A stretch of DNA of 64,000 nt from Thermoplasmata archaeon (GTDB lineage: Archaea; Thermoplasmatota; Thermoplasmata; Thermoplasmatales; ARK-15), in NCBI GenBank assembly GCA_049967595.1, contig JBMFSK010000001.1:543-64542 (forward strand), in the 5' to 3' direction. A program made the translations under genes and the position numbers. The notes beneath the pieces were generated by a model. It made no database searches. It saw nothing but the letters and a program-made list of their open reading frames with translations, and had not been told where the DNA came from. How positions within the stretch are numbered: position 1 is the first letter of the stretch; each line of letters begins with the position of its first letter. Of this stretch, positions 5,609 through 64,000 are shown piece after piece.

Positions 5609-5630
5609 ATTATTTGCATAAAAATAACAA

Positions 5631-5640
5631 CTATTTATTT
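5631..5640 (-). promoter_or_regulatory. candidate TATA box of the hemL operon (leaderless)
   Basis: The minus strand reads AAAATAAATA, centred about 28 nt upstream of the hemL ATG (5608). Confidence 0.35.
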
Positions 5641-5671
5641 TTTGACAATTAATTTAGATAATTTCAAAGTA

Positions 5672-5679
5672 TTTTTATA
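5672..5679 (+). promoter_or_regulatory. candidate TATA box of the ahb-hemAB operon (leaderless)
   Basis: TTTTTATA centred about 27 nt upstream of the in-frame ATG at 5703. The ORF-track start at 5685 is a TTG lying inside the expected promoter. Confidence 0.4.
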
Positions 5680-5702
5680 CATCTTTGCATCACGAATCAT
5701 AT

Positions 5703-7969: not shown

Positions 7970-7981
7970 TAGGTGAAAAAT

Positions 7982-8437
7982 ATGGATGATGTTGATATAA
8001 AAATCCTAAATTATGTGCAAAATAATTTCCCCGTAGATGAAAGACCTTACCTGAAAATTGCGGAAGATCTTTCTCTTGATGAGACTGAAGTGATTGAAAG
8101 AGTGAAAAAACTCCATGAATCAGGATACATTAAAAAAATCATACCAAAATTCTCAAAAAAGTTCTATGAAAATTATGAAAGGGCATTAGTTGCCCTTAAG
8201 GTAGATGATAAGGACATTGAAAAGGCAGCAATACTAATTAATTCAATTGATAATGTAACACACAACTATTTAAGGGATCATGATTACAATGTTTGGTTCA
8301 CTATTTCCGGAAAAGATATGGAATACATAAAAAATCAGATATCTGCTATTGTAGAAAAATTGCATATAAGTGATTACATGATCTTAAAATCCATAAAAAC
8401 AATTAAATTGGATACTGAATTCGAGGTAAAAATATGA
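7982..8437 (+). CDS. ahbA: siroheme decarboxylase subunit (AhbA/NirD-L-G-H family, Lrp/AsnC-like)
   Basis: 'DIKILNYVQNNFPVDERPYLKIAEDL' wHTH followed by an AsnC-type domain. AGGTGA lies 5 nt before ATG 7982; the ORF-track GTG at 7973 sits inside this SD. Confidence 0.75.
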   Translation: MDDVDIKILNYVQNNFPVDERPYLKIAEDLSLDETEVIERVKKLHESGYIKKIIPKFSKKFYENYERALVALKVDDKDIEKAAILINSIDNVTHNYLRDHDYNVWFTISGKDMEYIKNQISAIVEKLHISDYMILKSIKTIKLDTEFEVKI

Positions 8438-8853
8438 TTAAAATGTCAGATTTGAAAAATGGTATACCTATTAGTGATGACCCATACGGTGATCTTGCTA
8501 AGAGACTCTCTATACAAAAAGATGAACTTATTTATGAATTGAAAGAGCTTCTTATTAGTGGCCAGATTGTTAAATTCAAGGCATTGTTGGACCATGAAAA
8601 ATTAGGTTTTAAAGTAAACGCATTAATAGCTATGGATGGTAAAAATATAAACGCAGAAAGTATCCTTCATCTAGGCATTATTTCCCATTTTTACATAAGG
8701 GAACCAAACAAAAAATTTCCTTACAAGTATTATGTTATGGCACATTTTAGAAATGAAAATGAATTAATATGCTTCTCTGAGAATTTGGAAAAAATGCATA
8801 TAAAGCATGAGATATTAAGGACACTCAGAAATTTAAGATCTGATAAAAAATGA
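8434..8853 (+). CDS. ahbB: siroheme decarboxylase subunit, second paralogue
   Basis: 'GIPISDDPYGDLAKRLSI' with the same architecture as the preceding gene. ATGA overlap on both sides. Confidence 0.7.
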   Translation: MIKMSDLKNGIPISDDPYGDLAKRLSIQKDELIYELKELLISGQIVKFKALLDHEKLGFKVNALIAMDGKNINAESILHLGIISHFYIREPNKKFPYKYYVMAHFRNENELICFSENLEKMHIKHEILRTLRNLRSDKK

Positions 8854-9482
8854 AATATTTACCCATAATGCTGGATTTGTCACGAATTAAAGTTATAATA
8901 TTTGGTGGTGGAAAAGTTGCATATAGAAAGTTAAATTACTTTGAAGGTGCTGATATAACAATCGTGTCTGAAAATTTTTTGAAAGAAATATCAAAAAAGA
9001 ATGTTAGATTATTAAGAAAAAAAATTATTGATCCTGAAGAGGCAAGGCCAATCATAAAAGATGCAGATCTTGTAATAATTGCAACGAATGATAAAAGTTT
9101 GAACAGCTCATTAATGGGTATCTGTGAAGATGAGAAAAAGATATATAATTTGGTAGATGATAAAAAGAGCAAGGCAATTTTTCCTGCCTGTTATAATGAG
9201 AAGGACATTATCTTGGCAATTTCAACTTCAGGCAGAGCACCCGCACTTTCAACATTTCTAAGGGATGAATTATCAAAAAATTTAAAAAGGTATTCTAATG
9301 CTTTGGATATTGTGGAAAAAATCAGAAAATCTATAAATTCTCATAACGAGCAAATAAGGAAAAAATATTTCAGGGTTTTATTTGAGAGTAAAAATTTTTG
9401 GGAGTTAATTGATAAAAAAGATTTTGAAAAAGCATACCAATTAGCCTTGAAAGTATGGAGGGATATGGATGTTTCTAGTTGA
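8850..9482 (+). CDS. sirC: precorrin-2 dehydrogenase (SirC / CysG N-terminal / Met8-like), possibly also the sirohydrochlorin ferrochelatase
   Basis: 'VIIFGGGKVAYRK' Rossmann motif, 'LVIIATND', 'AISTSGRAPALSTFLRDEL'. Confidence 0.8.
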   Translation: MKYLPIMLDLSRIKVIIFGGGKVAYRKLNYFEGADITIVSENFLKEISKKNVRLLRKKIIDPEEARPIIKDADLVIIATNDKSLNSSLMGICEDEKKIYNLVDDKKSKAIFPACYNEKDIILAISTSGRAPALSTFLRDELSKNLKRYSNALDIVEKIRKSINSHNEQIRKKYFRVLFESKNFWELIDKKDFEKAYQLALKVWRDMDVSS

Positions 9483-10626
9483 CATTCTTGCCACATATAA
9501 AGATATGGACTTGATCAGTTTAGGCAAATGGACATCCATAGGAGACGAAACAATTATAGATCATTTTAAGGAAGTTTCAAAAGAGATTTTAATATTGAGA
9601 ACATGCAACAGGTTTGAAATCTACATTGTTCCAAGGAATGACCCTACAGAGAGAATTAAATTATTGTTTTCAGAGCATGGTCAAACTAGAATATTATACG
9701 ATATGGACGCTGTTTACCATATTATCGAGGTAGCATCAGGCATGGATTCTATGGTTCCCGGGGAACAGGACATTCAACGGCAGGTCAAAGATGCCCTTAA
9801 AAACTCTCTAGAAAAAAAAACATCCGGAAAAATCCTGAACTATATTTTTATGAGGGCATTAAACATTTCAAAAACGGTTAGATCTGAAACAAAAATAGGA
9901 AATGGTATTGTATCAATACCTCAGAGTGCGGTAAAGATACTAGAAAGTATGCTTAAAAATGGTGAATTATGTATAATTGGGACAGGAAAGGTTGCAAATT
10001 TATTGTTAAAATATCTGAAAGGGGAAAATTTTATAATTACTGTATTTGGAAGGAATGATGAAAAATTGAATTACATCAAAGAGAAATACGATGTAAAGGT
10101 GGAATATTTAAAAAACATTCAGGATAATTTGAAAAAATATGATGCTGTTATTTCTGCAATATCAATTAAAGATCCAATTCTTAAAAAGGAAAATTTTGAT
10201 GAAACTAAACCAATTTTGGTCATAGATCTAGGAAATCCAAGAAACATAGAAAAATTGGAAGATAGGTATTACGTGGATCTAGAATATATAAAGGGATATG
10301 TTGAAAAAAATATAACACAAAGAAAAAGTGAAATGGAAAAGGCAAGAAAAATAATAGATGAAAAAATCATTGGCATAGAAGATAAAATAAACTCAATGGA
10401 AATAGATTATCTGATCTCAAACATCTTCAAGAGAGCGGAAAGAATAAAAAAATCCGAGATTGAGAAATCAATAAAAATCTTAGGTAAAGATGCAGAATTT
10501 ACACTTGAAAAATTCGGTAGTTCAATGATTAATAAAATATATTCAAATTTAATTACAAATTTAAGAAAAGAGAGAGATCATATTTCAAGGGAAGAAATAG
10601 AATTAATAAAAAAATTGTTTAGGTGA
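9469..10626 (+). CDS. hemA: glutamyl-tRNA reductase
   Basis: 'ILRTCNRFEIY' active-site Cys motif, 'GEQDIQRQVK', NADPH-binding 'IIGTGKVA'. Confidence 0.9.
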   Translation: MFLVDILATYKDMDLISLGKWTSIGDETIIDHFKEVSKEILILRTCNRFEIYIVPRNDPTERIKLLFSEHGQTRILYDMDAVYHIIEVASGMDSMVPGEQDIQRQVKDALKNSLEKKTSGKILNYIFMRALNISKTVRSETKIGNGIVSIPQSAVKILESMLKNGELCIIGTGKVANLLLKYLKGENFIITVFGRNDEKLNYIKEKYDVKVEYLKNIQDNLKKYDAVISAISIKDPILKKENFDETKPILVIDLGNPRNIEKLEDRYYVDLEYIKGYVEKNITQRKSEMEKARKIIDEKIIGIEDKINSMEIDYLISNIFKRAERIKKSEIEKSIKILGKDAEFTLEKFGSSMINKIYSNLITNLRKERDHISREEIELIKKLFR

Positions 10627-11607
10627 ATGAATATGTTTCCGGTTTCGAGAATGAGAAGGTTGAGAGAAAATTCAACTTTAAGAAGAATGGTAGAAGAAAC
10701 TGAGCTGGAGATCGAGGATTTTATTTATCCAATCTTTGTAGATGAGAACATAACTGAAAAGATGGAAATTCCATCTATGCCAGGTATTTCAAGGATACCT
10801 TTAAATGATATAGAAAATGAAGGAAATGACCTGGAAGAACTTGGCATAAAAGCTGTTCTTCTTTTTGGAATACCCTCATGCAAAGATGAGAATGCTTCAT
10901 CAGCTTATGATGAAAATGGTGTTATACAGAAAGCGATTGAAAAATTAAAGAATAATAGCAATTTACTTGTTTTTGCAGATCTCTGCATGTGCGAATACAC
11001 TTCACATGGACATTGCGGTATAGTTTCAAACGGTAAAGTACTGAATGACAAAACTCTTGTAACATATCAAAAAATAGCTTTAAGCTATGCCAAAAGTGGT
11101 GTTGATGTTGTTGCACCAAGTGGCATGATGGATGGTCAGGTAAAGGAGATTAGGGACATTCTGGATAAAAACGGGTATGAGTATTTACCAATAATGGCAT
11201 ACAGCGCAAAATATTCATCATCGCTATATTCACCTTTTAGGGATGCTGCAGAATCCACTCCAAAATTCGGTGATAGAAAAACATATCAGATGAATTATTC
11301 TAACTCTAGAGAGGCCCTTAGAGAAATTGAACTTGACATTATGGAAGGTGCAGACATTGTTATGATCAAGCCAGCATTATTTTATCTTGATATCATAAAA
11401 ATGGCAAGAGAGAATTTCAGGCTACCCATTGCAGCATACAATGTCAGTGGCGAATATAGTATGGTCAAATCCGCTTCAATGGCAGGTTACATAGATGAAA
11501 AGGCTGTAGTTAAAGAACTCCTCACCTCAATAAAAAGAGCTGGAGCTGACATTATAATTACATATCATGCAAAGGATTATGCAAAATGGATAAAAGAGAT
11601 ATTATGA
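10627..11607 (+). CDS. hemB: porphobilinogen synthase (delta-aminolevulinate dehydratase), Zn type
   Basis: 'RMRRLR', Zn site 'DLCMCEYTSHGHCG', 'IMAYSAKYSS', 'VMIKPA'. The AGGTGA SD favours the second ATG (10633) as the start. Confidence 0.95.
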   Translation: MNMFPVSRMRRLRENSTLRRMVEETELEIEDFIYPIFVDENITEKMEIPSMPGISRIPLNDIENEGNDLEELGIKAVLLFGIPSCKDENASSAYDENGVIQKAIEKLKNNSNLLVFADLCMCEYTSHGHCGIVSNGKVLNDKTLVTYQKIALSYAKSGVDVVAPSGMMDGQVKEIRDILDKNGYEYLPIMAYSAKYSSSLYSPFRDAAESTPKFGDRKTYQMNYSNSREALREIELDIMEGADIVMIKPALFYLDIIKMARENFRLPIAAYNVSGEYSMVKSASMAGYIDEKAVVKELLTSIKRAGADIIITYHAKDYAKWIKEIL

Positions 11608-11845
11608 TTTTTATCTGTAATAGAAATCTTCACAATGAAACCTCTGAAGCATCAATAGAAATATATTTATATTAGTATGCTATATATATACATGTTGAAA
11701 TATCAAAAAATATGATGCTTGAATCCGTAAATTTAAAAATAGAAACAGCTGGCACTTATAAATATCCCTGAAGCGTATAAATATACTTGAAACAGAAAAT
11801 AGATAAGTTCCAGCTGAGACTTAATCAAAAAAAAGATGTGAAAAA

Positions 11846-13135
11846 ATGGCACTAATTCAGCTGTTCAATCAATTACTAATTCCGATAATTGCCACTATAG
11901 GAATAGTGGTGATATCACTTTACATAGTTGCATATCTAAATAGATTTTTCAATTATTTGAAAATTAAAGAATCCGTATTTTTAGGAGAAAACAGCGTTGA
12001 ACTACTTGAAATTATATTTTTATATTCGTTCTTCTCATTTTTATTTGTTTTTCTTGTTTATCTTTATTCGAGCATAGGTATAGTAATTAAAGATTATACA
12101 ACCAAAATAATATTCCCTTACCTCTATACATTTTTTTCAATTATCCTTGTTTTGCTTTTTTCTCTGTTTCTTTTGTCAATTAACAATAGAATTTTTAGAT
12201 TTCTAAGGGGCGAACTTCATACAAAACCAAAAAAGCTTATAAGCGAAAAATTTGGTTATTATACGGAACTTATAATAAAATATTTTATTTACATACTGGC
12301 CATAATATTTTCTATAATTATTTTGTTATCAAGCTTTGGTGTTCTTGGTAACACAAGCAAAGGCTTGAATTTATTTCTCTCAGAAAATGTCGAAGGTCTT
12401 TTGATGATCTTTCTCCTGATAATAGTAGGAATCATAATTTACCTTCTTTTTGTAGCATTTATAAGGGATATAAAATTGAGATCAAGTGCTCAGAAGGAAA
12501 AACTAGGAGGGTATTTGACTGGCATTATTAGAAATACGATAATTATTCTTGTTTCATTTGGCATAATTTTAATATTTCTTTCTATGCTAGGTTTCAGATA
12601 TGCTGACATTTTTGTCTTTATATTTTTTATAATCTTGATTTTTGTTATCATTTTATTTATTTTTTATTCGCCTTTCAAAAATGCAATTTCAGGCCTTATA
12701 ATTCTTTCAGCTGAACCTTTCGTTGAAGAGGATTATATTTCTATAGAAAATGAAGTGGAAGGTTTAGTTTTAAATATCAGTCTACTGTTCACAGAAATAA
12801 AAGATAATCTTGGAAAAATTACTTACGTACCAAATTCCATAGTCCTGGAAAAATATGTAAAAGTGATTTCATCACCCGGGAAATCATTCCCTGTAAGGTT
12901 TGAAGTGGAGATTCCGAATAAAATGAAAACTGAAGAATTTGAGAACCTTTTCTTAAAAATTATTATGGACATTCCCTACATTGAACAGAATGAAAGACCT
13001 GGAATATACCTGAAAGAATTAGGAAAGGAATTTAGCAGATATGAAATTTGTGTGCATGTAGAATTAAGTGAAAAATGTGAACACGTTAAGTCTGAGATTT
13101 TGAAAAAAATAAAATCAGCTGTGTACGAGCATTGA
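11846..13135 (+). CDS. MscS-family mechanosensitive channel-like membrane protein
   Basis: Multiple TM helices, then 'SGLIILSAEPFVEEDYISIENEVEGLVLNISLLFTEIKDNLGKITYVPNS', which matches the MscS beta-domain pattern (pF.vGD...G.V..i....T......g....iPNs). Confidence 0.7.
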   Translation: MALIQLFNQLLIPIIATIGIVVISLYIVAYLNRFFNYLKIKESVFLGENSVELLEIIFLYSFFSFLFVFLVYLYSSIGIVIKDYTTKIIFPYLYTFFSIILVLLFSLFLLSINNRIFRFLRGELHTKPKKLISEKFGYYTELIIKYFIYILAIIFSIIILLSSFGVLGNTSKGLNLFLSENVEGLLMIFLLIIVGIIIYLLFVAFIRDIKLRSSAQKEKLGGYLTGIIRNTIIILVSFGIILIFLSMLGFRYADIFVFIFFIILIFVIILFIFYSPFKNAISGLIILSAEPFVEEDYISIENEVEGLVLNISLLFTEIKDNLGKITYVPNSIVLEKYVKVISSPGKSFPVRFEVEIPNKMKTEEFENLFLKIIMDIPYIEQNERPGIYLKELGKEFSRYEICVHVELSEKCEHVKSEILKKIKSAVYEH

Positions 13136-25200: not shown

Positions 25201-26148
25201 ATGGACAGAAAATTGAGAGCAATGAAATGGTTCTTTGAAACTCTGTCAAGTAGCGATTACGAAAGACCTGTTTATGGTTCGTATAAACTACTTCACCAAT
25301 GCAATTTAAAATGCCCATTCTGCAATGTTTGGAGTGATCCGATGAAACCACTCGATACAAATGGTGTTCTCAAAGTCATAGATAGGCTATCAGATTCAAC
25401 TATTACTGTTCTATCACTTGAGGGAGGAGAGCCTTTACTTAGAAAAGATATTCTGAAAATAATCAAGCACGCACATGACAGATCATTTTATTTATTTATG
25501 ACTACAAATGGAATTTTGCTTGATAGAGCACCTTTAAAAGAATTTTCAAAGTATCTGGATTTCCTTCATATTTCGATTGATGAAGGCCATGGTAACCTTT
25601 TCCTTTTGGACAAACTAAAAGGTTATGTGGACCAAGGTTTAAAAATAACTGTTCAAACTGTGGTAACAAAAAATGACATTTCTTCGCTCAGGGAAAAAGT
25701 TGAAAAGATAAACGCTGCAGGTGCAAGAATACTTATTATGCCAGCAGTTCATTTTGACAACACACCTGATCTTTCACCCGATAGAAAAACCATGCATGAT
25801 GTTTTGGTGGATCTAAAAAATGAGTTTGATGGTGTTATAGTTACAAGCAATGCATTCATAAAAGCCTTGGAAAACCATTATACATGCAATTCTTTCAGCG
25901 TTTCGATAGAATCAAACGGTGATGTAATCTATCCATGCAGCGTTATAGGAAAATCTATTGGTAATTTACTAGAAAATGATCTTGAAACTTTACTCAGGGG
26001 TGAGAAGGCCGAGCAGGGAAGAAAGGAAATGGCATCCTGCAAAAGGGAATGCCTCCTTTACCTGCATGCTGAAACATCTAATTTCCATCAAATTTCCAAT
26101 CTTCTGGATTATGTGGGAGAAACGGTCAAAGGCTATTTCTTCAGGTGA
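25201..26148 (+). CDS. radical SAM protein of unknown function
   Basis: 'CNLKCPFCNVW' CxxxCxxC, 'SLEGGEPLL' SAM-binding GGE motif, C-terminal Cys residues ('YPCSV', 'SCKRECLL'). Confidence 0.75.
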   Translation: MDRKLRAMKWFFETLSSSDYERPVYGSYKLLHQCNLKCPFCNVWSDPMKPLDTNGVLKVIDRLSDSTITVLSLEGGEPLLRKDILKIIKHAHDRSFYLFMTTNGILLDRAPLKEFSKYLDFLHISIDEGHGNLFLLDKLKGYVDQGLKITVQTVVTKNDISSLREKVEKINAAGARILIMPAVHFDNTPDLSPDRKTMHDVLVDLKNEFDGVIVTSNAFIKALENHYTCNSFSVSIESNGDVIYPCSVIGKSIGNLLENDLETLLRGEKAEQGRKEMASCKRECLLYLHAETSNFHQISNLLDYVGETVKGYFFR

Positions 26149-26791
26149 CTGTTGTTTCTATTCTTTCCCTTCCTTTGCCCGGTTTTTTTCCTTTTTGTAT
26201 TTTTACTTTTCCTATTTCTAATGTGTTTTTTACATGTGTTCCAGCACATTTGGTTTTTATAAATTTTGATTCCCAATGCCTTATACCATTTTCATCAATC
26301 CATATGTTTATTGGATTATTTTCTTCCAAGAAAGCATTCACCTGATTTTCCACATTTTTTATTCTTTCAACTTCAAGAGGTTTATCTGTTAAAAAATCCG
26401 TCCTATCTTTGAATTCATCGACCATCCCTGATGAATATGTTTTTATATCTTTGAACTCCAAAAGCATAAAATATTCGACAATGTGGGAAGCAGAATGATT
26501 TCTCATAATCTTGTACCTTCTTTCCCAATCAATTTCACCAGAAACCTTTTCTCCAATTGTAAAATTTTTGTTCATAACTATGTGAAATATCGTTTCATCC
26601 TCCTTTATTGTATCAGTTACTCTTATATTCTTTAAGAAACCGGTATCGCCTACCTGTCCTCCACCTCTTGGATAAAATACTGTTCGATCAAGCTCTATTA
26701 AATTATCTTTTATTGAAATTACAATAGCATCGAAAGATTTTAGGTATGAATCTTTCCAGTACAATTTTTCAGTTATCATAAGATAAACCAC
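26141..26791 (-). CDS. alaX: AlaX-M-like alanyl-tRNA trans-editing protein (Thr/Ala-tRNA synthetase second additional domain)
   Basis: N-terminal 'YWKDSYLKSFDAIV', Zn motifs 'HSASH' (HxxxH) and 'CAGTH' (CxxxH). Confidence 0.8.
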   Translation of the reverse strand: MVYLMITEKLYWKDSYLKSFDAIVISIKDNLIELDRTVFYPRGGGQVGDTGFLKNIRVTDTIKEDETIFHIVMNKNFTIGEKVSGEIDWERRYKIMRNHSASHIVEYFMLLEFKDIKTYSSGMVDEFKDRTDFLTDKPLEVERIKNVENQVNAFLEENNPINIWIDENGIRHWESKFIKTKCAGTHVKNTLEIGKVKIQKGKKPGKGRERIETTVT

Positions 26792-27562: not shown

Positions 27563-28198
27563 ATGTTAATGTCTGCATCCATGGTAGATATATTCGAATA
27601 TGATGCTTTACTTAAAAGGGCAAGGGAACACATTCCACCTATTATATATTCAGATGACAGGTTCAAACTTCCAGAAGCTGAAATTACGATAGAAGGGAAG
27701 AATACTATTTTCAGAAATTTTGGTGAGTTTTGTGAAAAACTTGACCGGGACCCGCAGCATTTGTCGAAATTCCTTTTTAGAGAGCTTGGAACAGCAGGCA
27801 CAATTCAGGGCGAAAGACTTGTATTTAAGGGAAAAGTTTCATTATCTGATATTAAAGACAGAATTAACCAATATCTTAGAACGTACGTTATTTGCTATGA
27901 GTGCGGAAGCCCAGATACGATCTTGAAGAAAGAAGATAGGATAGAAATTCTTGTATGCAAAGCATGTGGCGCAACAAGACCTGTTACCGCACACGTGGAA
28001 ATAAAAGTGCAGGAAGAGAAAATAGAGGAAGGCAAAACTTACGAGTTGGAAATAATAGATGTAAGTAAGGATGGAGATGGAATTGCAAAAAAAAGCAATT
28101 TCACGATTTACATACCTAAGGCAAAAAAAGGCCAGAAAGTAAGGGTAAAGATTGAAAAGATAAAAAAGGACATTGCATTCGGCAGTATTGTTCCCTGA
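27563..28198 (+). CDS. eif2b: translation initiation factor aIF2 beta subunit with C-terminal TRAM domain
   Basis: The aIF2-beta core is 'TIFRNFGEFCEKLDRDPQHLSKFLFRELGTAG' plus zinc ribbon 'CYECGSPDT...CKACGA'. The last 60 aa or so, 'GKTYELEIIDVSKDGDGIAKKSNFTIYIPKAKKGQKVRVKIEKIKKDIAFG', match the TRAM pattern. Confidence 0.85.
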   Translation: MLMSASMVDIFEYDALLKRAREHIPPIIYSDDRFKLPEAEITIEGKNTIFRNFGEFCEKLDRDPQHLSKFLFRELGTAGTIQGERLVFKGKVSLSDIKDRINQYLRTYVICYECGSPDTILKKEDRIEILVCKACGATRPVTAHVEIKVQEEKIEEGKTYELEIIDVSKDGDGIAKKSNFTIYIPKAKKGQKVRVKIEKIKKDIAFGSIVP

Positions 28199-29454
28199 TG
28201 GTGATAAAAATGAAAGATCTTTCTTTGCTTATAAAAAGGGAAATAAATAGTCCTTCACCAATAAGAGAAATAATGAAAATGGCAGAGCCACAGAACATAA
28301 TAAATATGGGCCTTAATCCAGATGATGTTATATCTTTTGGAGGCGGCTGGGTGGATCATTATGCACCTGATGATCTTATAAAGGCATATTATTCAATAAT
28401 TTCAGATAAAATTTTATTTCACAAATCAGGAGGTTATTCACCCACTTCGGGTTTTAATGAAGCTAAGGAATCCATTGCAATGTATGAAAAATACCTTTTT
28501 AACGAAAATCTAAACATAGAGAATATCATAGTAGGCGGTAGCAGTTCCCAGCTTACAATAGACCTTTTTAGAGTTCTTCTTGATCCAAAGGATTCCATTG
28601 CTCTTGTGGATCCAACATATGCAAATTATTTCGGACAAATAAAATTCGTATCTGATTCTATAAAAGTAAAAACAATAAGTTTTCTGGACGAAAACTGGGA
28701 ATACCTGAAGAACAAAAAAGATATTCTTTCAGAAATTAATGAGATTTTTAAGGATCAAAAGTTAAAAGCTATGCTGATAGCATCACCTGATAACCCTACG
28801 AGCCAAATAATACCAAACAATTTTATCAATGATGTGATTAAGATTTCCATGGATACTGGAACATATCTGATTTTTGATTATGCATATAAAACACATTATT
28901 TTGATAATGAATTTCCAGATTATTTTTCTCTTTCCCCTAGTGATAATGAAAACATAATAACAATGAATTCAAACAGTAAATGGGACAGAGGCCTAGGAAG
29001 AAGAATGGGCTGGATTGAAGCAAATACAGAAATAATAAGATCTATGGAAAGGATGCAGCAGGCATCAATTCTATGCCCTGATTCTCTTCATCAAATGGCC
29101 TTTACAGAATACATGAAAAATACCACTAGAAGTGATTTAAAAAAATACATTGATAGTGTAAGAAATGATTACAGAAAAGCTGCCGGTCTAACAATAAAAG
29201 CAATCAGAGAACATCTTGGTTTCAAATATTTAGAGCCGCAGGGAGGCCTTTATGTTGCAGTAAATGTTGAAACTGATTCTGATTCTTTTGTTTTGAATGT
29301 ATTAAAAAATACTGGTGTAATCTTTGTTCCTGGAAAGGGCTTTGGTAGTTCAATGGCAAATGGAATTAGAATATCCTATGGTCCACTCGTTAGATCAATG
29401 GATAAAATAGAAGAAGGATTGAGCAGGGTGGGAAAATTCCTGCATGGCAAATGA
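28198..29454 (+). CDS. class I/II PLP-dependent aminotransferase
   Basis: 'PDNPTSQ', 'FDYAY', PLP-lysine motif 'NSNSKWDRGLGRRMGW'. Confidence 0.8.
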   Translation: MVIKMKDLSLLIKREINSPSPIREIMKMAEPQNIINMGLNPDDVISFGGGWVDHYAPDDLIKAYYSIISDKILFHKSGGYSPTSGFNEAKESIAMYEKYLFNENLNIENIIVGGSSSQLTIDLFRVLLDPKDSIALVDPTYANYFGQIKFVSDSIKVKTISFLDENWEYLKNKKDILSEINEIFKDQKLKAMLIASPDNPTSQIIPNNFINDVIKISMDTGTYLIFDYAYKTHYFDNEFPDYFSLSPSDNENIITMNSNSKWDRGLGRRMGWIEANTEIIRSMERMQQASILCPDSLHQMAFTEYMKNTTRSDLKKYIDSVRNDYRKAAGLTIKAIREHLGFKYLEPQGGLYVAVNVETDSDSFVLNVLKNTGVIFVPGKGFGSSMANGIRISYGPLVRSMDKIEEGLSRVGKFLHGK

Positions 29455-48627: not shown

Positions 48628-48901
48628 TGAAAAGGTCTCTTCTTACCTTAAAAAAACGGAAAGTGCACTGAAAAAAATAAAAATAGCTGCTCCAGAAAAT
48701 TCACACCTCTGGAAAATAGCGATCGATTTCCTTGAAATGGCAAAAAGCTATTTTAGTGATGCTAATTATTTTTTCACACAAGGAGATCTAGTTAATGCCT
48801 TTGCCGCTGTAAATTATGCCCATGGGTGGATTGATGCAGGTGCCAGAATGGGCTTGTTTGATGTGGAAAAAGACCACACACTTTTTACTCTGGCATATTA
48901 A
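48608..48901 (+). CDS. DUF357-family small helical protein
   Basis: 'AKSYFSDANYFFTQGDLVNAFAAVNYAHGWIDAGARMG' matches my recollection of the archaeal DUF357 signature. There is a 20-nt overlap with the upstream ATPase gene. Confidence 0.55.
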   Translation: MSQDLSNEKVSSYLKKTESALKKIKIAAPENSHLWKIAIDFLEMAKSYFSDANYFFTQGDLVNAFAAVNYAHGWIDAGARMGLFDVEKDHTLFTLAY

Positions 48902-49158
48902 TAATACTTACTGTACTTAAAAAGAAGATCTATCATATTTTTTGCCTTTTTTTCATCTATTATTCCTTCATTCTTTATCCTGATTATATAATCCCTTGCC
49001 TCATAAATACCCTGCTTGCTAGCCTTTGAATATATTGCTCCGAAAATAGAACCCCTCTGGTTCTCAGGCAAGTCTTCAACCATTTCCTTAAGCAAATACC
49101 TAAATTCATTGTTTTTGGACATATCAAGCTTTTTCTTTTTATTAGATGTTTTTTCCAT
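48898..49158 (-). CDS. small hypothetical protein (86 aa), Lys-rich N-terminus
   Basis: Clean ORF, 'KKKKLDMSKNNEF...GSIFGAIYSKASKQGIYEARDYI'. No family recognised. Confidence 0.45.
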   Translation of the reverse strand: MEKTSNKKKKLDMSKNNEFRYLLKEMVEDLPENQRGSIFGAIYSKASKQGIYEARDYIIRIKNEGIIDEKKAKNMIDLLFKYSKYY

Positions 49159-50233: not shown

Positions 50234-50428
50234 ATGGCACAAAAACCAGTAGTAGATGAGGCAACCTGTATAGCTTGCGGCATTTGCGCATCAGTATGCC
50301 CTGCAAACCCAGTTGTATTCACAATAGAAAATGTAAGCAAAGTTGTTCATCCGGAAACTTGCATAGAGGGCTGTACAGAATGTGTTAATAACTGCCCAAC
50401 AGGTTCAATTACAATTCAAAAACTTTAA
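50234..50428 (+). CDS. small 2x[4Fe-4S]-type ferredoxin
   Basis: 'CIACGICASVCP' and 'CIEGCTECVNNCP'. Confidence 0.8.
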   Translation: MAQKPVVDEATCIACGICASVCPANPVVFTIENVSKVVHPETCIEGCTECVNNCPTGSITIQKL

Positions 50429-51189
50429 ATATTTTGGTTTAAAAGCCTTTCTAAAACGTCCTTCAGACCAGGGACCGTTTCAAAATTTTTTATTTCTTCT
50501 GGTTTAATCCACTGGTATGTTGTATGTTCCCAATCAATGCTGATGTTATCACTTTTAATTTCCCATAGGAATATGTGAATTTTCCAAAGCCTTTTTCCAT
50601 CTCTCAAATAAATGAATCCTCCTTCTCTAATCAATTTCGCATCATTTATACCAGTTTCCTCGATTATTTCTTTTCTGGCGGCATCTACAGGCGAAAGATT
50701 TTCTTTATATCCTGAAACACCTGCCCATTTCCCCCTGTATGTCGAAACTTTATTACTTCTCCTGAGTAAGAGAATTTTACCATCGTGGACCAATATTGAG
50801 GTTACAACTTCAGTTGGCTCGATGTCAATGCTTATTTCATCGTTTATTATCTGGACCAGGTCTCCGTTACTGAAAATTTCAATATCTATGTTTTCCAGTG
50901 TAGGTATTTTTGTAAGTGCTGCACCCGTTACTATTGTCTCATCAGCCTTTCTACATAATATGGCCTTGGGTGCATTCCCATAAAACATTAATCCATATAT
51001 TATGTAAGACCCTACTGTGCTCCCGGCACTGCTATCAAAAACAAAAACCTTGCCTTTAATATTTTTGTTTATTTTTTTTACCAAACCTGTTTTAGGGTCT
51101 ACACCCCCAAGAAATGAAAAATTACCATCATATTTTAAAACCTCACCTGAGACATTTCCCGAATATATTACCTTACCTTTAATTTTCAT
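50425..51189 (-). CDS. fusion: AcnX small subunit (DUF126 swivel domain) + Nudix hydrolase domain
   Basis: The first 125 aa or so contain 'GEVLKYDGNFSFLGGVDPKTG' and 'FDSSAGSTVGSYIIYG' (DUF126). The last 130 aa or so contain 'GKWAGVSGYKENLSPVDAARKEIIEETGI' (Nudix box variant). Confidence 0.75.
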   Translation of the reverse strand: MKIKGKVIYSGNVSGEVLKYDGNFSFLGGVDPKTGLVKKINKNIKGKVFVFDSSAGSTVGSYIIYGLMFYGNAPKAILCRKADETIVTGAALTKIPTLENIDIEIFSNGDLVQIINDEISIDIEPTEVVTSILVHDGKILLLRRSNKVSTYRGKWAGVSGYKENLSPVDAARKEIIEETGINDAKLIREGGFIYLRDGKRLWKIHIFLWEIKSDNISIDWEHTTYQWIKPEEIKNFETVPGLKDVLERLLNQNI

Positions 51190-52348
51190 CCGTAACCATC
51201 TCCATCAGAGAACGCATATCAGAAAAGAAAATCTTCTTTTCTTTTCCAACATAATATGCAGCTTTACCTGAGTTAAGACCTACAACAGCAAACTTTTCTT
51301 GAATTGGTGAAACTACCATGCATGTATCGGTGAATACCTTAGCACCTGATTTCATTATTTCATTAACTAAATCAATAAATTCATTCTTAACTTTTCTTGA
51401 AGTAAATAAAATCAAATCTTTTCCTGTTTTTATCTTCCTATTCCTTAAAAAAATGGCTATATTTTTTATCTCTTCACCTGATAGATGTGGACAGCCAATC
51501 ATTACTACATCAGGGTCTAAATCAGAATTAATTGATCTCCTGAATTCTTCAAGTTCAGCTTTCGACAATGTTATAACATCAACATTGTCTGGGTCAGCTG
51601 CCCTATATTCAGGTGTAATTCCTTCAGCATGGAACATCGGTATACTCCCAGAAGAATTCAAAGCTGCTCCGAGCGATTTAAGCGCATCATTTTTATTATC
51701 AAGACCTTTAAAATATGGAATACCATTTTTTATTTTTGAACCCAAGTAAAGACCCACCATTGCATAATCAAAGAAATTAAGTTTAAAATCAAATTCTATT
51801 TTTATGGTGGCCTTTCTTCCATTATCGAGGTGAAGACCATAATTAGCAGCTCTACCAGTTATTGCAGCTGCAAGAGCAGATACACCACTTTCTCTGTTAG
51901 TTCTTGCCCCTAGGACTGAATTAGCATACACTATTGCCGAGGATTCCGCCCATGCTATGTGCTCTTTAATTTTTGGTTCAATGAGATAGTAAGGTGTGCA
52001 CGTGAGTGATAAGTTTGCACCAATTGACCTGAATAAATTTAATATCTCGGTTTGCCCTTCAATAAAATTCCTATCCGATGTAAAGAAGAGTGGATCGTCA
52101 AGATCAAAACCTATAGGGTTTAAAAAAGATGGCACTTTTACCTTTGTATCCTTAAATTTTTTCAAAAGGTCTATGCCGTATTCTCCTAAATTTTTGTAAG
52201 ATATCCCGGATATCTGTGCATTTTTTATACTTATGGTATTTTTTGCCTTATAATATTCGCCTAATTTTAATATTATCTCCATTGCCAGTTCATTACCATA
52301 GCCGTATTCGCCGTTAAGCATTCTTTCTTCTTCTTTTGTTAATAACAT
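51179..52348 (-). CDS. AcnX large subunit (DUF521; aconitase-X / phosphomevalonate dehydratase-like)
   Basis: 'LLTKEEERMLNGEYGYG', 'NAQISG', 'GCPHLS'. Length about 390 aa, with an 11-nt overlap onto the small-subunit gene. Confidence 0.8.
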   Translation of the reverse strand: MLLTKEEERMLNGEYGYGNELAMEIILKLGEYYKAKNTISIKNAQISGISYKNLGEYGIDLLKKFKDTKVKVPSFLNPIGFDLDDPLFFTSDRNFIEGQTEILNLFRSIGANLSLTCTPYYLIEPKIKEHIAWAESSAIVYANSVLGARTNRESGVSALAAAITGRAANYGLHLDNGRKATIKIEFDFKLNFFDYAMVGLYLGSKIKNGIPYFKGLDNKNDALKSLGAALNSSGSIPMFHAEGITPEYRAADPDNVDVITLSKAELEEFRRSINSDLDPDVVMIGCPHLSGEEIKNIAIFLRNRKIKTGKDLILFTSRKVKNEFIDLVNEIMKSGAKVFTDTCMVVSPIQEKFAVVGLNSGKAAYYVGKEKKIFFSDMRSLMEMVTDEN

Positions 52349-52353
52349 TATAT

Positions 52354-53259
52354 TTACCCCAGAACTACAGATTTTTTAATTTCTTTGCCTTTTCTAAGAA
52401 TGGATATGCTTATCTCTTTCCCTAGCTCAGATGTAGCAACCAAAAATTTTAATTCTTCAATACTGGAAAGCTCCTTGTCATTGAATTTCAATAATATATC
52501 CCCTTTTATCAAGCCAGCTTTATGAGCAGCCCCATTTGGTATAACCCCTGTTATCCAGACACCGTGATCCATTGGGAGTTTATAATTTTCTGCTATCATT
52601 TGATTTATGCTAAGTCCTGTTATTCCCAGTGACGGTTTCACAATTCTTCCGAACTTTTGTAACGATGATAAAATGATCTTTAGTATGTTGATGGGAATTG
52701 CAAATCCTATTCCTTGAGCATCTGCAATCATTGCAGATGTAATCCCAATTATTTCACTATCCATATTAACCAATGGACCGCCACTGTTTCCAGGATTTAT
52801 GGCTGCGTCCGTTTGAATGAGGTTTTCATACATTATCGAACCTGCTCTCACAGATCTGCCTGTTGCACTTATAATTCCCATGGTAACTGTTGGAGAGCCA
52901 AATACACCAAGAGGATTTCCTATAGCAAGGACCATTTCACCCACTCTCAACCTATCAGAATCTCCAAGCTTCAGTTGTTCTATATTCAAATTTTCTACAT
53001 TTATGAATGCAAGATCTAATGTTTTATCTGTATCCATTATTTTACCGCGGAGGTTTCTACTATCACTTGTGCTTACAAAAACAACCTCAGAATCCTGAAC
53101 AACATGGTAATTTGTAACTATTGTGTCTTTAGATATAACAAAACCTGATCCAGAACCTCTCAATTCCTCAAGATTCATGTATTTGTCTATCAATGTTTTT
53201 TCAACAGTAATATTCACAACACCATTCATAACTTTATCAACCACATCTTCAGGGTTCAT
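52354..53259 (-). CDS. HtrA/DegP-like trypsin-fold serine protease with PDZ domain
   Basis: 'TNYHVV' (His), 'DLAFI' (Asp), 'NPGNSGGPLVN' (Ser), C-terminal PDZ 'PNGAAHKAGLIKGDILLKFN'. Confidence 0.85.
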   Translation of the reverse strand: MNPEDVVDKVMNGVVNITVEKTLIDKYMNLEELRGSGSGFVISKDTIVTNYHVVQDSEVVFVSTSDSRNLRGKIMDTDKTLDLAFINVENLNIEQLKLGDSDRLRVGEMVLAIGNPLGVFGSPTVTMGIISATGRSVRAGSIMYENLIQTDAAINPGNSGGPLVNMDSEIIGITSAMIADAQGIGFAIPINILKIILSSLQKFGRIVKPSLGITGLSINQMIAENYKLPMDHGVWITGVIPNGAAHKAGLIKGDILLKFNDKELSSIEELKFLVATSELGKEISISILRKGKEIKKSVVLG

Positions 53260-53404: not shown

Positions 53405-54106
53405 ATGTGGGAAACAAATACAAAGAAAATTTACCTAGATGATTCTTACATAAAGGAATTTGATGCAAACGTTACCGAATACAACAAGAATGAAATTGTT
53501 CTTGATAAAACAGCATTTTATCCTGAAGGTGGAGGACAGCCTTCTGATCAAGGTGAAATAATCTCTGATGAAAAATTTAATGTTCTCAAAGTATACAAGG
53601 ATGGAAATGCTGTTGTTCACGTTTTGGACAGGGATTATACAGGTGGTAAAGAAATAAAAGGTATTGTTGACTGGAACATCAGATACGCACATATGAAACA
53701 TCATACGGCGGTTCATATTTTAAGTGGCATACTTTTCAAGGATTATGGGGCAAGGATAACTGGATCTCAGATTTATGCTGATAAAGCTAGAATGGATGTA
53801 AATTATGACCTGAAAAAGGAGGACATTTCTATCATTGAAGAAAAAGCCAATAAAATAGTTAACGCTGATCTTGAAATTAAGATCATTTACATTAAAAAGG
53901 ATGATCTAAAAAGTAATCAAGTAAGAGTAAGGGAAGATCTTTTGCCTGACGTTGAAACATTGAGAATAATTGATATTTCAGGGTTTGACAGCCAGGCAGA
54001 TGGTGGAACACATGTTAAAAGAACATCTGAATTGAAGGGTATAAAAATATTCAAATATGAGAACAAAGGAAAAATGAACAAAAGGATTTATCTAAACCTG
54101 TTATGA
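53405..54106 (+). CDS. second AlaX-M-like trans-editing paralogue
   Basis: '[17 protein letters not shown]', 'HTAVH' (HxxxH), but 'DGGTH' where CxxxH is expected. Confidence 0.75.
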
Positions 54107-61131: not shown

Positions 61132-62127
61132 ATGAGTTCTTATAAAATTATTACCACAAGGACACCTCTTAGAATAACTTTCACCGGTGGTGGAACGGAT
61201 ATACCAGCATATTATAGAAAATATGGTCCCGGAGCTGTTGTTTCTGCTACGATAAACAAGTACATCTATGTTACCGTAGCTAAGAACTTTTACAGGGATG
61301 AAATTAGGGTAAGTTATTCAAAAACTGAGAATGCTATAAAGGATGTTGATAAGATTGAGCACCCAACTGTTAGGGAAGCTTTGAAGCTTCTTGATATAAA
61401 ATCTGGTATACAGATAGTGAGCATAACAGAAATACCTTCAAGAGGAACTGGCCTAGGGTCAAGCAGTTCGTTCTTGGTAGGATTGTTGAATGCATTACAC
61501 GCGTGGAAAGGTGAGGCTGTAAGCCCAAGACAACTAGCTGAAGAGGCAGTAAAGATAGAGAGAGAAATACTCAAGGAACCTGGAGGAAAACAGGACCAGT
61601 ACATGGCAGCATTCGGTGGTATTCAATTAATGGAATTCTTCCCTGATGAGAATGTGTCATTAAAAAAATTTCAATTAAAAAAATGTAACAAATCTTTTTT
61701 TAATGAAAATTTTATTTTGCTCTATACGGGCATAGAAAGGGATGGAACAAAAATTCATAGTGTTCAGAGAAATTATGTTGACAATAAATTAAAAGAATAT
61801 ACCGAAGCAAAGAATTTTGCATATAATTTATTCTCGAAATTTAAAAAGTGTGATTTTAATGATGTTGGAAAAATTATGCATGAGAACTGGATGCTAAAAA
61901 AAAATTTTAGTCCTGGCATCTCTAATGAAATTCTTGACAATATTTATGAACTTGCATTAAAATCTGGAGCAAGTGGAGGAAAGTTACAAGGTGCTGGAGG
62001 GGGAGGATTCTATTTGTTTCAAATAAAAGATAAGAAAAAGTTCATGGATCTTTTATCTGAATATATTACACTGGAATTCAAAATAGATGAATCAGGTTCT
62101 AAAATTACATATAAGGAGTTTGATTGA
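61132..62127 (+). CDS. hddA: GHMP-family sugar kinase, D-glycero-D-manno-heptose 7-phosphate kinase (HddA)-like
   Basis: 'TPLRITFTGGGTDIPAY', GHMP motif 'PSRGTGLGSSSSF', 'GKLQGAGGGGF'. Confidence 0.7.
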   Translation: MSSYKIITTRTPLRITFTGGGTDIPAYYRKYGPGAVVSATINKYIYVTVAKNFYRDEIRVSYSKTENAIKDVDKIEHPTVREALKLLDIKSGIQIVSITEIPSRGTGLGSSSSFLVGLLNALHAWKGEAVSPRQLAEEAVKIEREILKEPGGKQDQYMAAFGGIQLMEFFPDENVSLKKFQLKKCNKSFFNENFILLYTGIERDGTKIHSVQRNYVDNKLKEYTEAKNFAYNLFSKFKKCDFNDVGKIMHENWMLKKNFSPGISNEILDNIYELALKSGASGGKLQGAGGGGFYLFQIKDKKKFMDLLSEYITLEFKIDESGSKITYKEFD

Positions 62128-62162
62128 AAAAATTATTAATCTAAGATAAGATATTCTTTTGA

Positions 62163-63071
62163 ATGGTAAAAGGAGTTATATTTGCAGGTGGCTACGGAAA
62201 AAGGCTTAAACCTATTACGGATAAAATCCCAAAGACTTTAATTGAGATAAGAAAAGGATACACTATTCTTGATAGGCAGCTTCTAGATTTTAAATACGCG
62301 GGAATTGATGACATATACCTTCTTGTTGGATATAAACACCAAATAATTGAAAAAAGGTATGGCAAAACTTGGAAAGGCTTGAACTTACATTATCTTATTG
62401 AGAAAAAACCAATGGGTACTTTGTGGGCTATGAAAAATTGCTCTGATTATGTGAACGATAATATTGTTGTGAGAAACGGTGATACCATTTCCGATATTAA
62501 TTTAAAGGATTTTGCTCAATTTTCTGAGAGTAAGAATTATTATCTCACGATAGCATTGACAAAAATGAAAAGCCCTTATGCTATTATTAATATAAAAGAT
62601 GACCAAATCGTAAACTTTATTGAAAAACCTTTATTAAATTTGTATATAAATGCTGGTATTTATTACTTAAAAAAAGATTCATTTAAATATCTGAATGAAA
62701 AATATGATAACAAGGAAATTGAAAAAAGCTTCTTTCCAAAAATGGTGGATCTAGGTTTGGCAGGTTCTTATATTGATGATTCAAAATGGTTTCCGGTGGA
62801 TAATTTCAAGGATCTAGAAGAATTAAGAAAAGAATATATTGGAAGAAAAGACAGGGAATACGGATACATTAAAAAAATAAAAAATACTTATGAAATTTAC
62901 ATTAAGAAAAAATATGTGGCAAAAATTGGATTAAAAGGTAATTTCCATTTAATCAGGGGAAAAGGGATATTAAATAAAAATTTTGAAGTAGATCAGGGTT
63001 ATGCATTTTTATCAAAAGAAACATTTTCTTATTACGCTTTGGAAAATTCAATAATTGTTGTTAATAAATAG
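62163..63071 (+). CDS. hddC: sugar-1-phosphate nucleotidyltransferase, heptose-1-phosphate guanylyltransferase (HddC)-like, with C-terminal extension of about 70 aa
   Basis: 'GVIFAGGYGKRLKPITDKIPKTLI' NTP-transferase signature, 'VRNGDTISD', 'INAGIYY'. Confidence 0.65.
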   Translation: MVKGVIFAGGYGKRLKPITDKIPKTLIEIRKGYTILDRQLLDFKYAGIDDIYLLVGYKHQIIEKRYGKTWKGLNLHYLIEKKPMGTLWAMKNCSDYVNDNIVVRNGDTISDINLKDFAQFSESKNYYLTIALTKMKSPYAIINIKDDQIVNFIEKPLLNLYINAGIYYLKKDSFKYLNEKYDNKEIEKSFFPKMVDLGLAGSYIDDSKWFPVDNFKDLEELRKEYIGRKDREYGYIKKIKNTYEIYIKKKYVAKIGLKGNFHLIRGKGILNKNFEVDQGYAFLSKETFSYYALENSIIVVNK

Positions 63072-63073
63072 AT

Positions 63074-63520
63074 TCACCTTTCAATTATTTTATATTTGAT
63101 TCCAAACCTTCTTGCCATTTCGCCATCTATATCATCCCTGTCGCCAATCACTATTGAATTTTCAATATCGATGTTATAATCCTTAAAGGCCTTTTCAAGC
63201 ATTCCTGTGTTAGGTTTTCTGCAGTGGCAGTTATCCTCTGGTTTGTGAGGACAAAAATAGGTAGCAGTAACATGAACACCTCTTTTTTCCAATTCATTCA
63301 AGAGATTGTTATGAAAGTCCCAGAACTCTTCTAATGTGAAATAACCCCTCCCTATGCCTGATTGGTTTGTTATAATTATTATAAGATAACCTTCTTCCTG
63401 ATATTTTTTCATAATCTCTACTGCATCTTCATAAATGTAAAGATCTTCAATCTTGTGGCAGTAAGGGCAATCCCTGTTTATTGTTCCATCCCTGTCAATG
63501 AATAGAGCCTTATTTTTCAT
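63074..63520 (-). CDS. gmhB: D,D-heptose 1,7-bisphosphate phosphatase (HAD-IIIA, Zn-binding)
   Basis: 'LFIDRDGTIN', 'ITNQSGIGRGYF', 'FCPHKPEDNCHCRKP', 'IGDRDDID'. Confidence 0.8.
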   Translation of the reverse strand: MKNKALFIDRDGTINRDCPYCHKIEDLYIYEDAVEIMKKYQEEGYLIIIITNQSGIGRGYFTLEEFWDFHNNLLNELEKRGVHVTATYFCPHKPEDNCHCRKPNTGMLEKAFKDYNIDIENSIVIGDRDDIDGEMARRFGIKYKIIER

Positions 63521-63639
63521 TTATATTCTTAATAATCTGCCCCTATAAATATTTTCATTGCCTAAAATTTTATAACATTTGATTTAAGAGAAAATTCATC
63601 ACCAAAGATTTAATTATTGAATATTGATTTCTAATATGT

Positions 63640-64000
63640 ATGGAAATTGAAGAAATAAAACTATATCTGAAAGAAGGTGCGGGTGCACGAATTTCTCTGG
63701 ATGCTAAGAAAATAAAAAACATAGGAGAAGAGATATCTGAGTGCATAAAAGGGGGGAATAAAATTATTTTAATGGGCAATGGAGGCAGTGCAGCAGATGC
63801 TCAACATATTGCTGCTGAATTTGTTGGGAAGTTTGAACTTGAGAGAAAACCTTATCCTGCATTAGTCCTTCATGGAAATTCATCAACAATTACTGCAATT
63901 GGCAACGATTATGGTTTTGAAAAGGTTTTTGAAAGACAGTTAGAAGCATTTGCAAAGAAAGGTGATATTGTTATTGCATTGAGTACCAGTGGAAATTCAA
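63640..64000 (+). CDS. gmhA: phosphoheptose (sedoheptulose-7-phosphate) isomerase, SIS domain; truncated by the window end
   Basis: My own translation from ATG 63640 reads MEIEEIKLYLKEGAGARISLDAKKIKNIGEEISECIKGGNKIILMGNGGSAADAQHIAAEFVGKF...ALSTSGNS. It contains 'GNGGSAADAQHIAAEF' and 'STSGNS'. It is absent from the ORF track because there is no stop within the window. Confidence 0.8.
   Translation, partial: MEIEEIKLYLKEGAGARISLDAKKIKNIGEEISECIKGGNKIILMGNGGSAADAQHIAAEFVGKFELERKPYPALVLHGNSSTITAIGNDYGFEKVFERQLEAFAKKGDIVIALSTSGNS

Follow-up and report, generated by a model that had tools for sequence, protein, structure and literature searches.

The small subunit of a predicted phosphomevalonate dehydratase is fused to a MutT-like Nudix domain in Thermoplasmata

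Phosphomevalonate dehydratase catalyses a key reaction in the archaeal mevalonate pathway, a route that saves ATP and is of interest to metabolic engineers. In this enzyme, a member of the AcnX (aconitase X) family, three cysteines are the ligands of the Fe-S cluster (PMC10040528). In the Thermococcus kodakarensis enzyme, the phosphate of mevalonate 5-phosphate (MVA5P) is contacted by G48, V49, S50, N53 and N79, the hydroxyl group by E129, S131 and K361, and the carboxylate by S130, K361 and T63 of the small subunit, while Y365 reaches the substrate through a water molecule (PMC8184944). The dehydratase route is the general archaeal one, and the Thermoplasma-type route has been described only for the order Thermoplasmatales (PMC10040528, PMC9254496). 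Here we describe a stretch of 64,000 nucleotides (the window) from a Thermoplasmata archaeon (contig JBMFSK010000001.1 of GenBank assembly GCA_049967595.1), in which the small subunit of a predicted dehydratase of this kind continues, within one reading frame, into a Nudix domain. We favour the reading, to which we assign a rough probability of 0.55, that a true dehydratase subunit has been stably fused to an autonomous MutT-like Nudix domain with a substrate of its own.

The dehydratase gene pair and the fusion

By homology, the gene pair encodes an AcnX type II phosphomevalonate dehydratase, because both the cysteine ligands and the MVA5P contacts are conserved. The large subunit matches TK1249 of T. 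kodakarensis (PDB 7CNR/7CNS) with an E-value of 1e-95, and the swivel half of the fusion protein matches TK1248 (E 2.1e-22) and superposes in Foldseek on the small-subunit chains of 7cnr with a template modelling (TM) score of 0.88 and a root mean square deviation of 1.3 A. The three cysteine motifs TCTPYY, GCPH and DTCMVVSP align with the cysteines of TK1249, and in the alignments the MVA5P contacts are identical here except V49, a main-chain contact, which is replaced by isoleucine. The swivel half contains the motifs SFLGGVD and GSTVGSY, including the threonine equivalent to Thr63 of the T. kodakarensis small subunit. The pair would convert mevalonate 5-phosphate into trans-anhydromevalonate 5-phosphate in the archaeal mevalonate pathway; judged from its homologues, the large subunit would hold the Fe-S cluster and make most of the contacts to the substrate, and the swivel that closes the active site would be formed by the first 123 aa of the fusion protein. 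An AcnX enzyme with a non-mevalonate substrate, the fallback of an earlier note made on this DNA from the letters alone, is rejected on the strength of the conserved MVA5P-binding residues. The features of the locus are as follows.

51179..52348 (-): AcnX large subunit (predicted phosphomevalonate dehydratase domains 1-3), 389 aa, PF04412 E 7.6e-129 (Pfam)
50425..51189 (-): swivel + Nudix fusion open reading frame (ORF), one frame, 254 aa
50821..51189 (-): swivel domain, equivalent to AcnX domain 4 and forming the actual small subunit, aa 1-123 of the fusion protein, PF01989
50425..50820 (-): Nudix domain, aa 124-254 of the fusion protein plus stop codon, PF00293
51179..51189 (-): overlap of the large-subunit end with the small-subunit start, 11 nt, ATGAAAATTAA, read from the DNA
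50647..50712 (-): Nudix box GYKENLSPVDAARKEIIEETGI, aa 160-181
50524..50535 (-): subfamily signature DWEH, aa 219-222
52354..53259 (-): HtrA/DegP-type serine protease, 301 aa, Trypsin_2 + PDZ (Pfam), upstream of the large subunit with a gap of 5 nt
50234..50428 (+): small 2x[4Fe-4S] ferredoxin, Fer4 families, convergent with the fusion gene, the 3' ends overlapping by 4 nt

In the fusion protein, Pfam recognises AcnX_swivel (PF01989) at aa 24-97 (E 2.1e-24, 85.6 bits against a cutoff of 27) and NUDIX (PF00293) at aa 128-248 (E 5.1e-12, 46.4 bits against a cutoff of 21.1), and the NCBIfam assignments agree with Pfam for the proteins of the locus. The layout described in the earlier note is borne out: its AcnX large-subunit-like ORF, the 11-nt overlap of the two genes (ORF coordinates and DNA reading), the swivel domain (DUF126) in the N-terminal part of the second gene with the peptides quoted there, the C-terminal Nudix domain with lysine (K173) at the canonical arginine position of the box, and HtrA 5 nt upstream on the same strand are all present, and the C-terminal half, which scores above the cutoff of the Nudix hidden Markov model (HMM), adopts the alpha/beta/alpha Nudix fold in a confident model. 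The 11-nt overlap suggests translational coupling inside one operon. The HtrA and ferredoxin neighbours are common only to the two closest relatives (L001, L002), and a conserved link of the dehydratase to either of them can therefore be set aside.

The swivel-Nudix fusion is genuine and is a lineage trait of Thermoplasmata. The DNA at the junction contains no homopolymer and no other obvious source of a frameshift, and an identical fusion protein occurs on independent NCBI and JGI contigs. Both Pfam domains are present in all of the best 120 homologues found in a collection of 5.8 billion proteins, the named members of which come from metagenome-assembled genomes (MAGs) of Thermoplasmata or Methanomassiliicoccales. 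A scan of one genome per GTDB species yielded 39 loci with both domains (L002-L040); swivel and Nudix lie in the same frame in every one of them (tblastn), the AcnX large-subunit gene is directly upstream in 38, and these species-level fusions from Thermoplasmata and Methanomassiliicoccales span 31-80% identity. That the junction is an assembly or frameshift artefact joining two separate genes, a doubt raised in the earlier note, has a practically negligible probability, because the fusion is conserved across genomes; the independent contigs and the confident single-chain AlphaFold2 (AF2) model likewise speak against it. As to novelty, our full-text literature searches found no paper describing or testing an AcnX swivel-Nudix fusion, in agreement with the note, whose author knew of none; in public data, on the other hand, the architecture is common and annotation pipelines label both domains: NCBI names the protein 'aconitase X swivel domain-containing protein [Thermoplasmata archaeon]', and a number of JGI entries are already called 'predicted aconitase with swiveling domain/8-oxo-dGTP pyrophosphatase MutT'. 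Anyone expressing or modelling the dehydratases of much of Thermoplasmata, the Methanomassiliicoccales with their gut and rumen methanogens among them, thus faces a small subunit of two domains. A locus of a Methanomassiliicoccaceae MAG (L011, 8774-10780) contains a 668-aa ORF made of AcnX large subunit, swivel and Nudix, which is either a triple fusion or an assembly indel error.

The surroundings of the pair differ between fused and unfused lineages. In Thermococci, Bathyarchaeia, Thorarchaeota and a few bacterial MAGs, where the small subunit is unfused, the gene for a UbiD-type decarboxylase comes first, then the AcnX large and the AcnX small subunit genes, and last the gene for an isopentenyl phosphate kinase (IPK) of the amino-acid-kinase type. 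No UbiD, UbiX or IPK gene was found within 10 kb of any fused locus, or in the 64-kb window, a result that shows a lack of clustering in these regions and not absence from the genome. The GHMP kinase gene at 61132-62127 was considered as a mevalonate kinase and rejected, as it scores best as a heptose-7-phosphate kinase and lies inside a sugar-nucleotide cluster. At a locus of the DHVE2 group (L065), an unfused small subunit of 122 aa is followed by a class-I tRNA-synthetase gene, the same neighbour that follows the fusion in many Thermoplasmata. Three loci from MAGs labelled as bacteria (L070, L072 and L080; Cytophagia, Anaerolineae) carry archaeal-type AcnX large and small subunits and IPK, with UbiD preceding them in L072; in L072 and L080 the two subunits fall in one longest-ORF call, and such calls are often over-extended.

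The Nudix domain and its partners

The AF2 model of the whole fusion protein, built with 29 homologues, has a predicted local distance difference test score (pLDDT) of 95.3 and a predicted TM score (pTM) of 0.85. The linker between swivel and Nudix in this model consists of four residues, which predicts that the two are packed together into a single body. In Foldseek, the Nudix half matches many Nudix structures with a probability of 1.00 and TM scores of up to 0.83, led by 3grn, Bdellovibrio RppH (BdRppH), NudI, NudG and diadenosine tetraphosphate (Ap4A) hydrolases. A Nudix profile searched against PDB sequences ranks these in the same way, with MutT also among the solved relatives and plant NUDX1 far down the ranking (E about 2e-4). 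A Nudix domain like that of type 1 isopentenyl diphosphate (IPP) isomerase (IDI-1) was considered and rejected, as the PDB matches listed for the Nudix half, whether by sequence, by profile or in Foldseek, include no IDI-1.

We counted residue conservation over 270 Nudix domain sequences of the subfamily, from all architectures. The glutamates E174, E177 and E178 are conserved at 96-100% throughout, and the subfamily signature R-S...W-A-x-V-S-G...E-x-x-E-E...D-W-E-H...W...V-P is completed by conserved R144, S145, W155, S159, G160, W220, E221, H222, W227, V239 and P240, of which E221 reaches 100% in each of the architecture classes, while the majority of classes also conserve W220 and H222. Compared with the Nudix consensus GX5EX7REUXEEXGU, the core of the box reads K-E-I-I-E-E-T-G-I here, with K173 replacing the canonical arginine; among the fused proteins, position 173 is lysine in 60% and arginine in 26%. 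In the window protein and its close relatives the box loop is one residue short and the first glutamate of the box is absent; this glutamate is variable in the family, being present in 77% of the fused proteins (as 'GE' in most of the family). Because the catalytic glutamates and the signature are conserved, the Nudix domain is probably an active MutT-like pyrophosphohydrolase.

The Nudix half does not show the specificity motifs of three other Nudix subfamilies. NudC enzymes carry SQPWPFPxS after the box, ADP-ribose pyrophosphatases a proline about 16 residues after it and Ap_nA hydrolases a tyrosine about 16-18 residues after it. None of these three fits, as residues 197-199 of the window protein are D-G-K and SQPWPFP is missing. 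A coenzyme A pyrophosphatase was also considered, and the stretch before the box is spaced as in the NuCoA motif, but the conserved arginine and FPGG are missing and the Deinococcus radiodurans enzyme ranks 20th in the profile search.

The same Nudix subfamily occurs with a variety of partners. A search of 1.84 billion representatives with the Nudix domain gave 737 clusters at E<=1e-10, of which the best 150 were classed by local HMMs and Pfam, as follows.

Standalone Nudix (<=175 aa): 50 of the best 150 of 737 clusters
Degenerate swivel + Nudix: 29 of the best 150
Nudix + IF-2B: 27 of the best 150
Swivel + Nudix: 18 of the best 150
CinA/PncC + Nudix: 3 of the best 150
Other (HAD + Nudix, 2-thiouracil-desulfurase + Nudix, tandem Nudix, others): 23 of the best 150

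Fusions to IF-2B and overlapping gene pairs make an IF-2B-type sugar-phosphate isomerase, and not a mevalonate enzyme, the most recurrent companion of this Nudix domain. Of the Nudix + IF-2B proteins (P0128, P0135, P0141, P0190 and 23 other representatives), the named ones come from Nitrososphaerales and Halobacteria, and the IF-2B halves are closest to ribose-1,5-bisphosphate isomerase, scoring 180-210 bits against a curated cutoff of 314. Loci of Chloroflexota and Syntrophomonas (L051, L068, L079) have a standalone Nudix gene whose 3' end runs into an IF-2B-like gene, and six loci of Thermoplasmata have, after the swivel-Nudix gene, a bona fide MtnA gene that either overlaps it or lies no more than a few bases away. 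Fusion to CinA/PncC (of the NMN-deamidase type) is the rule in the Dehalococcoidia loci (L041, L042, L045, L047, L052, L054, L058, L061, L062), where the protein has about 306 aa and its flanking genes are one of the metallo-beta-lactamase fold and one that is ComM/Mg-chelatase-like. Finding the substrate of this widely fused subfamily would explain several types of fusion at once.

Decayed swivels and the role of the Nudix domain

The 29 degenerate-swivel representatives (P0133-P0269) are proteins of about 245 aa in which Pfam sees only NUDIX. Their N-terminal 100-120 aa nevertheless align with the swivel profile in hhalign (97.3% probability, E 2.7e-11), and it is on this alignment and on the matching order of secondary structure elements that the homology of the vestigial swivel rests. 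None of the 29 has kept SFLGG or GSTVG, as against 120 and 129, respectively, of the 137 intact proteins. In the model of a vestigial-form protein (pLDDT 92.5, pTM 0.83), strands and helices follow one another as they do in the window protein, and confidence is low only at the former SFLGGVD loop; AcnX small subunits are not among its top 50 Foldseek matches, all of which are Nudix proteins. Residue R196 is present in 100% of both the intact and the vestigial swivel classes and in at most 33% of each other class, a pattern that fits common descent of the two, perhaps with a role for R196 at the domain interface.

The sources of the degenerate-swivel proteins, annotated 'NUDIX pyrophosphatase', are Thermoplasmata, among them Ca. 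Sysuiplasma and Ca. Lutacidiplasmatales. When a profile of these proteins was searched, the best 120 matches were mostly of this type themselves, and no vestigial form from a cultured member of the Thermoplasmatales whose Thermoplasma-type pathway has been proven was among them. No AcnX large-subunit gene was found within 10 kb in L043, L048, L057 and L085; L086, a contig of 6.6 kb on which the gene of L085 recurs, has none either. In L048 (Sysuiplasmataceae) the flanking genes are as in the fused loci L005, L014 and L030, and the large-subunit gene is gone. That the Nudix domain has been kept after the decay of the swivel argues for a role of its own, and the series also suggests that the swivel has become a structural platform of the Nudix domain. 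Whether an intact or a decayed swivel precedes the Nudix domain may also mark where lineages of Thermoplasmatota kept or abandoned the dehydratase route.

We therefore propose that an autonomous Nudix domain has been joined to a true dehydratase subunit. The fusion would be old and lineage-wide in Thermoplasmata and would have joined two genes that lay side by side, and the Nudix substrate would most likely be a nucleotide-type or ribose-phosphate-type diphosphate and not an intermediate of the mevalonate pathway. The swivel would have turned into a structural platform of the Nudix domain, which would account for a decayed swivel being kept in relatives without an adjacent AcnX large-subunit gene. 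Several points weigh against this proposal, however. The fusion has been kept over hundreds of sequence clusters, and such retention usually signals a functional link. Some MutT-like Nudix enzymes, such as E. coli NudB and plant NUDX1, hydrolyse prenyl diphosphates, so that, for all its fold neighbours, the domain may act on dimethylallyl diphosphate (DMAPP) or IPP. At the unfused locus L077, a related Nudix gene lies 23 nt upstream of a type-2 IPP isomerase gene, beside the operon for anhydromevalonate phosphate decarboxylase and phosphomevalonate dehydratase. The loss of the large-subunit gene in vestigial lineages was seen for a neighbourhood of +-10 kb and not for whole genomes, and in a neighbour-joining tree of the 270 Nudix domains (130 columns) the classes interleave and do not resolve a single origin of the fusion.

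The earlier note had proposed a coupling at the level of substrates, in which the Nudix domain hydrolyses DMAPP to dimethylallyl monophosphate (DMAP), feeding UbiX and thereby the supply of prenylated FMN (prFMN) for the UbiD-type anhydromevalonate phosphate decarboxylase. This idea is chemically reasonable. In its favour, the fusion partner is a true mevalonate-pathway enzyme and the catalytic glutamates are intact, and it gains a little from the L077 locus of an uncultured archaeon with an unfused AcnX pair (10387-12637; same contig as L087), where the genes for TrmB, a MutT-like Nudix of 131 aa and a type-2 IPP isomerase (381 bits for TIGR02151, the cutoff being 281) follow one another in this order, the latter two in an apparent operon, and the trio is convergent on a cluster of UbiA, UbiD and the AcnX large and small subunit genes. 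A UbiA-type prenyltransferase gene also lies three genes from the standalone Nudix gene in three related Thermoplasmata loci (L055, L056, L069). The comparative evidence nonetheless points away from the coupling, which is not supported: the subfamily is a promiscuous module, widespread in contexts without isoprenoid genes (fusions to CinA, IF-2B, HAD and TudS; bacterial loci), it has been retained where the swivel decayed and the large-subunit gene is not adjacent, and its characterised relatives, including the solved ones, act on nucleotides, with the prenyl-diphosphate enzyme NUDX1 ranking low. The missing UbiD, UbiX and IPK genes around the fused loci add to this. L077 is the only other isoprenoid link; it is one locus in thirteen, which is within chance, and a metagenome scan for relatives of its Nudix-isomerase pair returned the same contig and matches of at most 48% identity, none of them near isoprenoid genes. 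We consider it unlikely that the Nudix domain takes part, in any such manner, in the work of the archaeal mevalonate pathway of Thermoplasmata, and quite unlikely that it supplies DMAP in particular. Were it part of the pathway, the fusion and the Nudix-isomerase pair of L077 would be two independent signs of the link.

A doubtful but more specific form of the reading we favour is that the Nudix domain is a salvage enzyme for ribose phosphates or pyridine nucleotides, converting for example phosphoribosyl pyrophosphate (PRPP) to ribose 1,5-bisphosphate (R15P), or NAD(H) to NMN and AMP, with IF-2B isomerases and PncC as its usual partners and with the dehydratase link arising from gene adjacency in a mixed operon. 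The Nudix + IF-2B fusions with their R15P-isomerase-like halves, the overlapping Nudix and IF-2B genes of bacteria, the six Thermoplasmata loci in which MtnA follows the fusion and the CinA/PncC fusions of Dehalococcoidia all fit this, and a Nudix-catalysed conversion of PRPP to R15P for the use of IF-2B isomerases has been proposed, as a speculation in genome papers, for archaea without AMP phosphorylase (bioRxiv 10.1101/2019.12.22.886556; PMC7300363). The IF-2B halves score below the R15P-isomerase cutoff, however, no gene of the IF-2B family (PF01008) lies in the 64-kb window, and the Nudix/eIF-2B domain protein HVO_1934 of Haloferax is listed without a proven activity as an enzyme (PMC8576121). 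That swivel and Nudix are predicted to pack tightly, with a short linker, and that R196 is invariant in the swivel-linked classes only, could also be taken to mean that the Nudix domain regulates or protects the dehydratase, by sensing or removing a diphosphate that influences how the swivel closes (for example mevalonate diphosphate, IPP or a nucleotide signal). This we regard as very unlikely, as the Nudix domain was kept after the catalytic motifs of the swivel decayed, which points to a role of its own, and its catalytic residues are the same as those of the standalone members.

Other features of the window and comparison with described systems

Elsewhere in the window, a tetrapyrrole cluster at 2090-11607 encodes HemD, TP_methylase, HemC, HemL, two radical-SAM proteins, two NirD/L-like (AsnC-type) proteins, a precorrin-2-dehydrogenase-like protein, HemA and HemB, a content that looks like the alternative (siroheme-dependent) haem pathway. 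The sugar-nucleotide cluster at 61132-64000, which runs on in L084, comprises a GHMP kinase, an NTP transferase, a PNK3P/HAD phosphatase, a SIS isomerase and a second GHMP kinase. Two separate AlaX-like genes with the tRNA_SAD editing domain, at 26141-26791 (-) and 53405-54106 (+), lie at most 28 kb apart. Two proteins have no Pfam match, one of about 410 aa (28198-29454, +) between TRAM-domain and PIN-domain genes, and one of 86 aa (48898-49158, -).

Among solved Nudix structures, the best match to the Nudix half is the 'MutT related protein' of Methanosarcina mazei (3GRN), a structural genomics entry with no function in its name, which is similar both in sequence (E 1.8e-7, or 3.6e-12 when a profile is used) and in fold (TM 0.83). 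The motif (D/S)(W/Y)EH...W is common to the two, with SYEH where the subfamily has DWEH; 3GRN differs in being a standalone protein, about 26% identical, whose box opens with the canonical PGG and not with the VSG of the fusion family. The next neighbours, NudI and NudG (ORF135) of E. coli and Salmonella, Bdellovibrio RppH, Ap4A hydrolases and MutT, have the same small, single-domain MutT-like fold, but they are only 20-28% identical and their specificity motifs are not shared with the Nudix half, so that no substrate can be transferred from them. Closer in sequence are the metagenomic Nudix + IF-2B proteins of the Haloferax HVO_1934 type, from Nitrososphaerales and Halobacteria MAGs, which carry the same Nudix subfamily with 45-52% identity to the window domain, HVO_1934 itself lying outside the alignment; their partner is isomerase-like and C-terminal, whereas here it is an AcnX swivel and N-terminal.

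On the side of the dehydratase, the locus resembles TK1249 and TK1248 of T. kodakarensis and the phosphomevalonate dehydratase of Aeropyrum pernix in having adjacent large and small subunit genes, and it has kept the cysteine ligands and MVA5P contacts of the T. kodakarensis enzyme, on whose small subunit the swivel superposes closely (TM 0.88). Unlike both described enzymes, it carries an extra Nudix domain of 130 aa on the small subunit, and unlike the operons of Thermococci, Bathyarchaeia and Thorarchaeota, its genes are not adjoined by those for the UbiD-type decarboxylase and IPK. The degenerate-swivel + Nudix proteins share with the window protein the two-domain layout, the length, the Nudix signature including R196 and, in L048, the synteny, but they are without SFLGGVD, GSTVGSY and a nearby AcnX large-subunit gene, all of which the window protein has.

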